31,718 bases of DNA, taken from positions 1 through 31,718 of the forward strand of contig CAZXOU010000001.1 of NCBI GenBank assembly GCA_964642355.1. Direction: 5' to 3'. This document shows, piece after piece, positions 14,079-16,580 of the stretch (its first letter is position 1; each line of letters starts with the position of its first letter). This DNA comes from an uncultured Gammaproteobacteria bacterium (lineage in GTDB: Bacteria; Patescibacteriota; Patescibacteriia; UBA2169). The notes under the pieces are model-generated. The model was not told the origin of the DNA. It searched no databases and saw nothing but the letters and a program-made list of their open reading frames with translations. The position numbers and the translations under genes are program-made.

Positions 14079-14107
14079 AAAAAAATACCCAGCGTATGCT
14101 GGGTATT
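14079..14107 (-). terminator. Terminator-like hairpin between tsf and pyrH
   Basis: AATACCCAGC-ATAC-GCTGGGTATT with a T-run directly abutting the pyrH ATG. Confidence 0.65.
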
Positions 14108-14603: not shown

Positions 14604-15308
14604 TTATTCTTTAGGTTTTTCTTTGCCTGCAATCACTGCATCTGCAATGATTTTAGTGATGAGTTCAATTGCTTTTAACGCATCATCATTAGCAGGAATT
14701 GGGTAATCAATTTTGGTAGGGTCAGTATTACTATCCACAAAAGCTACCACAGGAATTTTAAGCTTTCGCGCTTCAGCTAATGCTGTTTTGTCGTACTTAG
14801 TATCTACAATAAATACGGCACCTGGCTTTCCTTTAACATCTCTAATACCACCTATTGCTGAAGTTAATTTTTCGTAATCATCTCCAAATTCTAATTGTTC
14901 TCGCTTAGTGTACTTTGCTAATCTGCCAGATTGCTTGTCTTCTTCGTACTTTTTCATTCTCTTAAGCATGCTTTCTATTGCTTGCCAGTTGGTAAGAGTT
15001 CCGCCTATCCATCGGTTTACCATAAAAGGACTTTCTGAGCGCTCTGCATTTTCTTTCACTGCTTTTCGTGCCAAAGGTTTTACTCCTACAAATAATATGG
15101 ATTTTCCTTGTCCGCTAAGTGATGAAACCTCTTTAACTGCTTTTTCCAAACTTTCTCTGGATTTGGCTAAATCAATTAAATGAATTCCTCCACGTTTCCC
15201 GTATAAATACTGCTCCATTTTAGGATGCCAACGGCTTGTTGTGTGCCCAAAATGAACACCTGCCTCTAGTAGGTCTTCTATTGATGGTAATTTAACTTGT
15301 TCTGACAT
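14604..15308 (-). CDS. rpsB: 30S ribosomal protein S2
   Basis: LLEAGVHFGH, RWIGGTLTNW, DSNTDP, PANDDA; SD AAGGAG. Confidence 0.97.
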   Translation of the reverse strand: MSEQVKLPSIEDLLEAGVHFGHTTSRWHPKMEQYLYGKRGGIHLIDLAKSRESLEKAVKEVSSLSGQGKSILFVGVKPLARKAVKENAERSESPFMVNRWIGGTLTNWQAIESMLKRMKKYEEDKQSGRLAKYTKREQLEFGDDYEKLTSAIGGIRDVKGKPGAVFIVDTKYDKTALAEARKLKIPVVAFVDSNTDPTKIDYPIPANDDALKAIELITKIIADAVIAGKEKPKE

Positions 15309-15326
15309 AATATATTCTCCTTTTAA

Positions 15327-15360
15327 TCCGCCTCATCGGCGGACCCGCCGATGAGGCGGG
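15327..15360. repeat. REP-like palindromic doublet in the rpsB leader
   Basis: TCCGCC-TCATC-GGCGGA followed by CCCGCC-GATGA-GGCGGG; together a perfect 15-bp inverted repeat (15328-15359). Confidence 0.7.
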
Positions 15361-15451
15361 CTACTACTGTATATCATAGCACGATAGACCCCTAAACGGG
15401 GAGGATAATCAAGCTCAATACAGTATGATTGATTAGTAATTTGTAAACCAA

Positions 15452-15480
15452 ACTATAACACAAGACTAAAAATAATGCAA
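15452..15480 (-). promoter_or_regulatory. rpsB-tsf promoter
   Basis: TTGCAT, 17 nt, TATAGT with extended TGn; followed by a structured leader (stem 15425-15365). Confidence 0.7.
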
Positions 15481-15482
15481 AT

Positions 15483-15512
15483 TTGACAGCAGCAGCTTGT
15501 GAACAGTATAAT
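15483..15512 (+). promoter_or_regulatory. Consensus promoter with no intact downstream sense gene
   Basis: TTGACA (15483-15488), 18 nt, TATAAT (15507-15512). Confidence 0.6.
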
Positions 15513-15701
15513 AAAAGTATCCTTTATGACTGAACAGGAAAAGATTAATTAAACATACTCAGAAATCAATCGCGACATTGCCCAAATAGTCTTTGCGATA
15601 TTTCTAAATACAGCCGTTTGTAGGCGGAACCCCTAGACCAGACTTTGCGCTAATCGGAATATTCGGATCACTCGGATTTTGGGCATTAAGCATTTTCTTT
15701 C

Positions 15702-16028
15702 TTAAAAACAACTATGTTTAACTTCAACAACTAGTTCACCAACTTGGACTTTGAATTCAACACCCCACTCTCCTTCGCCGTAAGCATTTATATGCACGAG
15801 AGCAGGCTTAGCTTCTTTATCGAACACAAGCCCAACAAAATGATATAACTGCTCAAGCTTCCACTCTCCACAACCATCAGAATTTTGCCACCCTTCATTG
15901 TCCAAATCTATATCAGTTCTACAAATCCGCCAATGCAGAACCACGTCCTCATCAAGCAATGCAGGATCTTGGAACAAATTGCCAATCTCTGCATTTGGAG
16001 CAACTAAAGCAGATTCTAACGCGCACAT
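15702..16028 (-). CDS. Acidic hypothetical protein, 108 aa, downstream of the Ile attenuator
   Basis: SD AAGGAG 8 nt before ATG 16028 (MCALES...); no recognised motif. Confidence 0.65.
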   Translation of the reverse strand: MCALESALVAPNAEIGNLFQDPALLDEDVVLHWRICRTDIDLDNEGWQNSDGCGEWKLEQLYHFVGLVFDKEAKPALVHINAYGEGEWGVEFKVQVGELVVEVKHSCF

Positions 16029-16068
16029 GAGACACACTCCTTGTTTAAAGTTAAAGAACAAAACAACT

Positions 16069-16180
16069 AAAAAGCCTCCAAGCGGAGGCTTTTTGTATCA
16101 AACGATTTCTATTTAAAAGCTTCCACTCATAGAGGGCTGATAATCTTAATAATGCTAATAATATTTCTTGTGGAAGTCAT
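16069..16180 (-). promoter_or_regulatory. Isoleucine-responsive transcriptional attenuator
   Basis: Leader ORF plus mutually exclusive helices: 1:2 CUUCCAC/GUGGAAG, 2:3 GUGGAAGCUUUU/AAAAGCCUCCGC, 3:4 terminator AAAAAGCCUCC-GCUU-GGAGGCUUUUU. Confidence 0.8.
16127..16180 (-). CDS. Leader peptide MTSTRNIISIIKIISPL
   Basis: ATG ACT TCC ACA AGA AAT ATT ATT AGC ATT ATT AAG ATT ATC AGC CCT CTA TGA; below the ORF-track size cutoff. Confidence 0.78.
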   Translation of the reverse strand: MTSTRNIISIIKIISPL

Positions 16181-16191
16181 ATAATGTATAT

Positions 16192-16220
16192 ATACTAATC
16201 TATTACATAAAATCAGTCAA
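16192..16220 (-). promoter_or_regulatory. Promoter for the attenuator leader
   Basis: TTGACT (16220-16215), 17 nt, TAGTAT (16197-16192). Confidence 0.7.
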
Positions 16221-16223
16221 CAC

Positions 16224-16252
16224 TTGCATTTTGTGGAAAACTATAGTATACT
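16224..16252 (+). promoter_or_regulatory. rpmE promoter
   Basis: TTGCAT, 17 nt, TATACT. Confidence 0.7.
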
Positions 16253-16268
16253 ATTCTGGTAATTAATT

Positions 16269-16580
16269 ATGAAAAAAGACATTCACCCAACCTATCATAC
16301 TGATGCAAAAGTTGTTTGCGCATGTGGCAACAAGTTTTCTACTGGATCTACCCAAAAGGAAATTCACACAGAAATATGTGCAAATTGCCATCCTTTTTAT
16401 ACTGGTAAACAAAATTTAATTGACACAGCAGGGCGTGTTGAGCGTTTTGAGGCTATGGTAAAAAAGACTGGGGATCTAAAAAGCAATGCTAAAAAATCTA
16501 AGTCAGAAGGTAAAGTTGATAAACAGCTTAATAATAAAGCAAAACTAGAAAAAATAAAAGCAGCTTTGGATAACAAATAA
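16269..16580 (+). CDS. rpmE: 50S ribosomal protein L31 (Zn-binding type) with Lys-rich tail
   Basis: [27 protein letters not shown]. Confidence 0.96.

Follow-up and report, generated by a model that had tools for sequence, protein, structure and literature searches.

A probable isoleucine leader-peptide attenuator upstream of a small lineage-specific protein gene in a Patescibacteria bacterium

In the divergent gap between rpmE-prfA-prmC (plus strand) and orf108, rpsB, tsf and pyrH (minus strand) on contig CAZXOU010000001.1 of assembly GCA_964642355.1, an intrinsic terminator stands between a promoter and the promoter's own gene, and the question raised by this locus is what a terminator does at such a place. 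The whole stretch of DNA that was analysed, 31,718 nucleotides (nt) long, is called the window below, and the elements of the locus all lie on its minus strand. The sigma-70 promoter, TTGACT-17-TAGTAT (16192-16220), is back-to-back with the rpmE promoter (TTGCAT-17-TATACT, plus strand). The gene, orf108 (15702-16028), encodes a protein of 108 amino acids (aa) and is preceded by the strong Shine-Dalgarno (SD) sequence AAGGAG (16037-16042). The terminator between them, AAAAAGCCTCC-GCTT-GGAGGCTTTTT (16069-16094), has an 11-bp stem, a GCUU loop, a U tract to about 16060 and an energy of -15.6 kcal/mol. Since the terminator separates the promoter from its own gene and no gene converges on it, a regulatory explanation is needed.

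The element is probably a transcription attenuator of the ribosome-mediated, leader-peptide kind, which would sense charged tRNA-Ile and govern the small lineage-specific protein gene behind it; this gene is most likely switched on when isoleucine-charged tRNA is scarce. A first-pass annotation of the window had proposed a promoter, an upstream open reading frame (uORF) with isoleucine (Ile) codons, pairing segments and a terminator at this locus, and all of these were found in place on the minus strand.

Leader reading frame and its isoleucine codons

The organism was placed among the Patescibacteria by ribosomal protein S2, with at most 50% identity to the representatives of the Genome Taxonomy Database (GTDB). 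The contigs with an identical orf108 product (L001-L005) are also about 100% identical to the window in their DNA and carry no comparative signal. In a search with S2, a closer metagenome contig, L050, was obtained (73% S2 identity), in which a 167-aa homologue of the orf108 product (31% identical, E = 2e-10) is encoded directly upstream of rpsB. Searched exhaustively with HMMER and by two rounds of profile search, the family was found to comprise six clusters (P0001 and P0004-P0008), with loci L050, L094, L095, L096 and L103 besides that of the window; L094, L095 and L096 are close relatives of one another. The leader is complete in the window, L094, L050 and L103. Among these loci the downstream proteins are only 25-40% identical, and the guanine-plus-cytosine (GC) content of the genomes ranges from 37% to 57%, the latter being that of contig L103.

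In the window, the uORF (16127-16180, with the ATG at 16180 and the TGA stop at 16129-16127) encodes MTSTRNIISIIKIISPL and contains a run of six Ile codons, ATT ATT AGC ATT ATT AAG ATT ATC (16139-16162). The search for an Ile-rich uORF in related genomes, proposed when the element was first noticed, found one in all four complete leaders and not the hairpin alone. The corresponding peptides are MSSARNIISIIAIITHSEWTAL in L094, MNSIRIINIINIIITPNTSGSL in L050 and MTSAKGIIIIGIIRRSPSGSL in L103; the uORFs are 17-22 codons long and contain 6 (window), 6 (L094), 8 (L050) and 6 (L103) Ile codons. Tested by the binomial distribution against the codon usage of each contig itself, the enrichment in Ile gave P = 1.9e-3 for the window, 4.7e-4 for L094, 3.7e-4 for L050 and 1.2e-5 for L103. 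AT bias can be excluded as the source of the run because it is kept in the 57% GC contig L103, as ATC ATC ATT ATC GGC ATT ATT.

In the runs of the four leaders, the Ile codons are without exception AUU or AUC, which tRNA-Ile(GAU) reads, and none is ATA. The share of ATA among Ile codons is 31% in the genes of the window and 31-34% in the AT-rich genomes, and the probability of zero ATA codons in the runs is about 0.006 (two AT-rich genomes). The frame is kept in L094, L050 and L103 with synonymous changes (AGA/CGC for Arg, TCC/TCT for Ser, AAT/AAC for Asn and ATT/ATC for Ile), a substitution pattern that looks like that of coding sequence. The arrangement of the runs varies (IIxIIxII, IIxIIxIII and IIII-x-II), and so do the intervening residues. 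A reading of the run as Leu codons (UUA, in the +1 frame) was also considered and was rejected, since the ATC codons of L103 preserve only the Ile frame.

A promoter like that of the window was observed at the equivalent place in L094, L050 and L103, with the form TTGACA-16/17-TA(A/G/T)(A/G)AT, and the distance from the -10 box to the uORF ATG is 9-12 nt in all four complete leaders (11 nt in the window). The uORF of the window has no SD sequence, and its mRNA is near-leaderless. Among the long open reading frames (ORFs) of the window, 19 of 26 have no SD sequence and many carry a -10-like hexamer 6-12 nt before the ATG, which suggests that leaderless or short-leader initiation is widespread in this organism.

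Alternative helices and the position of the ribosome

Downstream of the promoter, the leader contains segments that can pair in mutually exclusive ways. Segment 1 (16170-16178) consists of the G of the AUG followed by ACUUCCAC; segment 2 (16115-16128), GAGUGGAAGCUUUU, overlaps the uORF stop codon; and segment 3 (16080-16093) is formed by the 5' arm and loop of the terminator. Segment 2 can pair either with segment 1, its anti-antiterminator partner, or with segment 3, its antiterminator partner. The segment-1 core CTTCCAC (16176-16170) is perfectly complementary to GTGGAAG (16126-16120). The segment-2 core GTGGAAGCTTTT (16126-16115) pairs with AAAAGCCTCCGC (16093-16082) through 11 pairs, including one G-U, with one A.C mismatch, and the 2:3 pairing is lengthened by two further pairs, out to 16128 with 16080.

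The energies of these duplexes were compared with those of 1000 dinucleotide shuffles per leader. For the 2:3 duplex, energies of -16.1 (window), -17.4 (L094), -14.7 (L050) and -13.2 kcal/mol (L103) were obtained, which were matched by 0, 0, 0 and 47 of 1000 shuffles, respectively, the value for L103 being marginal. The 1:2 duplex of the window, with -11.5 kcal/mol, was better than 990 of 1000 shuffles, and the numbers of shuffles matching the 1:2 duplex were 10, 0, 189 and 4 for the window, L094, L050 and L103.

A terminator hairpin lies upstream of the gene at all six family loci, with stem sequences that differ. On the alignment of the four complete leaders (A4), 92.9% of the cells are paired for the 1:2 helix, 86.4% for 3:4 and 81.8% for 2:3; in control alignments with the register slid by 1-3 columns, pairing was at most 58%, and for 2:3 at most 50%. 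Compensation was observed in each helix. In 1:2, A-U at A4 columns 20/67 is replaced by G-C in L103; in the 3:4 terminator, three pairs are compensated; and in 2:3, two pairs are compensated between the window and L094, C-G/G-C and U-A/C-G (columns 73/112 and 74/111). The uORF frame, the distance to the promoter, the position of the stop relative to segment 2 and the three exclusive helices have all been kept with compensatory substitutions. Without constraint, RNAalifold recovered the terminator and the 1:2 helix, the latter at A4 columns 13-21 with 66-74 and including the G of the AUG, and reported five compensated pairs. The covariance model R1 matched only family loci in about 0.7 Mb of related DNA; no further copies were found when it was run on 0.59 Mb of loci plus the window and on 13 IMG/VR loci chosen by the segment-2 pattern, and its weak matches of 15-29 bits were terminators. 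As a separate observation on L103 (733-803), GUUCUCC just 5' of segment 2 also pairs with the 3' arm of the terminator, so that both arms of the terminator are taken up in a single long hairpin whose end is still at the U tract.

The spacing of these elements is conserved. Although the uORFs differ in length, the distance from the AUG to the start of the segment-2 core GAG(U/C)GGA is 50-53 nt in each of the four leaders. The start of the last Ile codon precedes segment 2 by 11-14 nt, which is approximately the distance from the A site to the leading edge of a ribosome. The uORF stop abuts segment 2 in the window and falls inside or just after it in L094, L050 and L103. In a ribosome model, only the RNA 3' of the ribosome was folded, the footprint being set at -15 to +12 nt relative to the A-site codon. 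In L094, L050 and L103, the modelled equilibrium probability of the terminator, P(terminator), was about 0 as long as the A site was on an Ile codon and about 1 once it had moved to the following codon or beyond. In the window, segment 3 was sequestered before segment 4 was made (0.79) until codon 16 and was then freed (0.2). A geometry of the thrL/ilvL type, as first claimed for this locus, is supported by the conserved spacing and by the modelled flip, for which the footprint is assumed.

From this arrangement we infer that the uORF is translated, that the ribosome stalls on its Ile codons and that the gene is regulated in the following direction. RNA polymerase would start about 5 nt upstream of the AUG, and a ribosome would load onto the near-leaderless uORF. 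With Ile-tRNA(GAU) plentiful, the ribosome would reach the stop and mask segment 2, the 3:4 helix would form, and transcription would end about 40 nt before the gene; with no translation, 1:2 would pair and the terminator would also form. With Ile-tRNA scarce, the ribosome would stall in the AUU/AUC run, so that segment 1 is covered or sterically blocked, and its leading edge would stop just short of segment 2, leaving this segment free for the emerging segment 3. Once 2:3 had formed, no terminator would be made and the gene would be transcribed. The unit regulated in this way looks monocistronic, because a terminator lies 3' of the gene in L050 and rpsB has a separate, conserved promoter of its own (TTTGCA-17/18-TATAGT, extended TG; minus strand, 15481-15452 in the window).

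Several results weigh against this interpretation. The size of the ribosome footprint is an assumption, and in the window the equilibrium P(terminator) flips between codons 11 and 12 and has reached 1.00 when the ribosome is on the last two Ile codons (13 and 14). In L050, 189 of 1000 shuffles were as good as the 1:2 pairing, which is weak there, and the folding energy of the whole leader of the window is unexceptional (z = -1.4). The ribosome-free equilibrium fold favours 1:2 plus the terminator in the window and L094; in L050 and L103 it favours the antiterminator, so that in these two the off state would have to depend on the order of folding during transcription together with ribosome masking. 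Covariation did not go beyond that of column shuffles, 36-50 of 500 shuffles for 1:2 plus 3:4 and about 300 of 500 for 2:3 being as good. These statistics are weak because there are four complete leaders only and L094, L095 and L096 are closely related; the covariation is supportive of the helices and falls short of proof. Among 338 short ATG-initiated ORFs in the window (37% GC), 3 are as rich in Ile as the uORF. The window by itself is not convincing, and it is the comparative evidence that decides. Moreover, the regulated gene, whose neighbours are rpmE-prfA and rpsB-tsf, shows no connection with the metabolism or transport of Ile or with tRNA charging, in contrast to nearly all known amino-acid attenuators; in those of the ilv, thr and trp type, the target serves to make, charge or transport the amino acid that is sensed, and such a target was not found here.

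The regulated protein and rival explanations

The regulated gene had initially been described as an acidic ORFan. The second term was overstated, as five homologous clusters exist elsewhere, and the first is true of the window protein and P0005, with isoelectric points (pI) of 4.4 and 4.7, but not of the other members (pI about 7-8). The family proteins are 108-167 aa long and share the conserved core W-R...GW...LYHLI-L-FD-E--PA...G-EF-V; the C-terminal 40-60 aa present in other members are missing from that of the window. Their Ile content ranges from 2.6% to 10.2%. The gene next after the family gene is rpsB in L094 and L095 also. No homologue was detected by tblastn of orf108 against 44 GTDB Patescibacteria rpsB loci, and a hidden Markov model (HMM) of the family found nothing beyond the known members in the six-frame ORFs of all 103 loci. 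Profile searches with the family protein gave no Pfam, NCBIfam or PDB match. The AlphaFold2 model had a predicted local distance difference test (pLDDT) score of 44 when made from the sequence alone and of 62 when an alignment of 6 sequences was used. A Foldseek search of the PDB gave E >= 0.49 and a template-modelling (TM) score < 0.4.

Past the orf108 stop, translation of the plus strand at 15641-15670 gives DFALIGIFGS, similar to the DLxLVxIFGS motif of the family but in inverted orientation. This similarity, with an E value of about 0.09 for a very small search space, may be due to chance or be what is left of a rearrangement. A frameshifted C-terminal remnant downstream of the orf108 stop, which was also considered, was unsupported, this weak inverted motif being all that was observed there.

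To our knowledge, Patescibacteria lack amino-acid biosynthesis. We tentatively suggest that the lineage, presumed to be auxotrophic for amino acids and to obtain isoleucine from a host or community, might use stalling on the Ile leader as a sensor of nutrient or host status for a lineage-specific starvation or host-interaction protein encoded beside rpsB-tsf, and that the terminated leader RNA of about 115 nt or the leader peptide might also act in trans; we regard these proposals as possible but rather doubtful. For action in trans, a parallel is provided by rnTrpL and peTrpL of Sinorhizobium, which act in this way. For the sensing of host status, the suggestion parallels the use of Ile as a host signal by Listeria, as reported in PMC5864092.

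Other explanations of the same architecture have to be weighed. The leader peptide might sense general translation stress or a ribosome-targeting compound and not the Ile supply, in the style of ErmCL, BmrB or ABC-F leaders; stalling would then require the nascent peptide together with a drug, and the downstream protein would be protective. This would agree with a regulated gene outside amino-acid metabolism, and the hydrophobic I-I-x-I-I of the peptide is loosely like the IFVI motif of ErmCL. However, what the leaders conserve is how many Ile residues there are and which codons encode them, and the peptide is not fixed, which is the signature of a codon-supply sensor; in addition, ATA is avoided in the Ile runs, and the protein family matches no known resistance family. 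A uORF, terminator and antiterminator also occur together in drug-sensing attenuators, for example in the reported system with tylosin-dependent stalling (PMC6851288). We consider the sensing of stress or of a compound unlikely here. It is quite improbable that the uORF is untranslated and that the AUUAU repeats between segments 1 and 2 are instead bound by an RNA-binding protein (TRAP- or PyrR-like) or by a trans RNA. The AUUAUU repeats are spaced by about 9 nt in the window, L094 and L050 and might form a repeated binding site, but the spacing differs in L103 (four contiguous Ile codons, then two), and the changes between AGA and CGC for Arg and between AUU and AUC keep the peptide and not the RNA motif. 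The uORF has no SD sequence, but SD-less starts are normal in the window genome. The fixed distance of the AUG from the -10 box, the frame open over 17-22 codons even at 25-32% GC, and the stop at segment 2, all in four of four leaders, speak against this reading.

The hairpin could also simply terminate transcription, in part on both strands, or mark where a small independent transcript (a small RNA, sRNA, or a micropeptide mRNA) ends, with the gene expressed by constitutive read-through or from its own promoter and the Ile frame being incidental; the probability of this is very small. In the window, the hairpin is flanked by an A tract and a U tract, consistent with termination on both strands, and from a plus-strand promoter of perfect consensus (15483-15512) an antisense transcript could run into the hairpin. 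The hairpins of L094 and L096 have no upstream A tract, however, the plus-strand promoter is absent in L050, and no gene converges on the hairpin. A promoter for the gene alone would have to fit into the 40-nt stretch 3' of the terminator, which is too short. Ile-rich short ORFs do arise by chance in the window, and the sub-threshold Rfam matches cover the terminator only; against this, relatives that include the 57% GC genome keep the uORF and, through compensatory changes, both the 2:3 and the 1:2 complementarity. A leader-peptide attenuator responding to charged tRNA-Ile is the preferred explanation.

Relation to known systems and neighbouring features

The proposed mechanism matches the trpL/thrL/ilvL class, and leader-peptide attenuation is not known to have been described before in this lineage or for this target gene. 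As in the trpL, thrL, ilvL/ivbL, hisL, leuL and pheL attenuators, a short uORF contains a run of codons for one amino acid. As in the attenuators of Proteobacteria, there are mutually exclusive 1:2, 2:3 and 3:4 helices, 3:4 being the terminator, and the stop is placed so that a ribosome would mask segment 2. Unlike in the latter, the uORF has no SD sequence, the G of the AUG lies within segment 1, the Ile codons lie in the 1:2 loop, the target is a small protein without a database match and not a biosynthetic operon, and the host belongs to the Patescibacteria. The ilvL leader mixes Ile, Val and Leu codons, whereas the sensor codons here are Ile only.

At the gathering threshold, a search of the whole window with Rfam gave nothing in the attenuator region. 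Below this threshold, Thr and Phe leader matches of 18-31 bits were obtained, the best being 30.6 and 26.7 bits against a gathering value of 55 (RF00506, RF01859), and the sub-threshold leader and sRNA matches (E <= 10, 15250-16320) covered the terminator only, on both strands. A tRNA scan found no tRNA near the attenuator region, and no T-box matched in Rfam even at E <= 10 in 15250-16320. The proposed element resembles the T-box riboswitches upstream of ileS in that tRNA-Ile charging would be sensed and a choice made between terminator and antiterminator; unlike these, it has no specifier-loop architecture, and sensing is proposed to proceed through the translating ribosome and not by direct binding of the tRNA.

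In mycobacteria, as described by Canestrari et al. (bioRxiv 10.1101/834739), leaderless polycysteine small ORFs (sORFs) form attenuators in which the stalled ribosome remodels the RNA and switches on the genes 3' of them. The element described here shares with these sORFs a leaderless or near-leaderless sensory uORF as first cistron, with consecutive codons of one amino acid; unlike the mycobacterial elements, which on that account are translational, act by unmasking a ribosome-binding site and lie at Cys metabolic loci, it has a canonical intrinsic terminator 40 nt upstream of a separate SD sequence, and its target has no known connection with Ile. Leader peptides of ilv genes outside the Proteobacteria have been reported for Corynebacterium ilvBNC (PMC11857589, PMC10272879), in a survey of Actinobacteria (PMC1262725) and for S. 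aureus and Listeria ilv (PMC5794164, PMC5864092). They have in common with our locus a uORF rich in branched-chain amino-acid codons followed by a terminator, with a three-hairpin model for Corynebacterium; they differ from it in controlling branched-chain amino-acid biosynthesis through mixed Ile, Val and Leu codons, our leader being Ile-only and the gene non-metabolic. Some predicted actinobacterial ilvB leaders failed in mutational tests, according to PMC1262725, and the same caution applies to the Ile leader described here.

The first-pass annotation knew of no ribosome-mediated attenuation in bacteria of the candidate phyla radiation (CPR), and a full-text literature search, the coverage of which was incomplete, likewise found no report of leader-peptide attenuation in Patescibacteria/CPR. 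Very few regulatory mechanisms have been described so far for these small-genome bacteria. If the proposed mechanism is true, Patescibacteria would monitor tRNA charging through the ribosome even when unable to make the amino acid, and the locus would be an example of amino-acid attenuation uncoupled from biosynthesis. Induction at low Ile-tRNA would then be the first functional handle on a protein family that cannot be annotated. The attenuator is compact (about 130 nt) and could be tested in heterologous hosts or cell-free systems, which is useful for organisms that are hard to culture. The uORFs are below the size accepted by gene callers, and in SD-poor, largely leaderless genomes they can be detected and validated through comparison.

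Some further features were observed around the attenuator. The plus-strand promoter at 15483-15512 has a perfect sigma-70 consensus sequence (TTGACA-18-TATAAT), is back-to-back with the rpsB promoter and is directed antisense into orf108. The next plus-strand terminator after it is the hairpin at 16069-16094, so that the two might delimit an antisense RNA about 575 nt long; no counterpart of this promoter was found in L050. In the 5' untranslated region of rpsB (15328-15359, minus strand), a perfect GC-rich inverted repeat of 15 nt, CCGCCTCATCGGCGG / CCGCCGATGAGGCGG, lies immediately 5' of the rpsB SD sequence without a U tract. This repeat might form a hairpin for autoregulation by S2 or for stabilisation, and smaller hairpins are present at the same place in L050. 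A palindromic hairpin resembling a terminator, AATACCCAGC-GTAT-GCTGGGTATT (14084-14107), lies within the 31 nt that separate tsf from pyrH and was scored on both strands. Between rpmE and the attenuator, the closest relative encodes a protein of 746 aa (L097, 483-2723; L050, 25-1998) that carries a Por_Secre_tail domain, a C-terminal domain of the type IX secretion system (T9SS) type, and across Patescibacteria the divergent gap between rpmE and rpsB contains variable inserts of about 0.2-2.8 kb.

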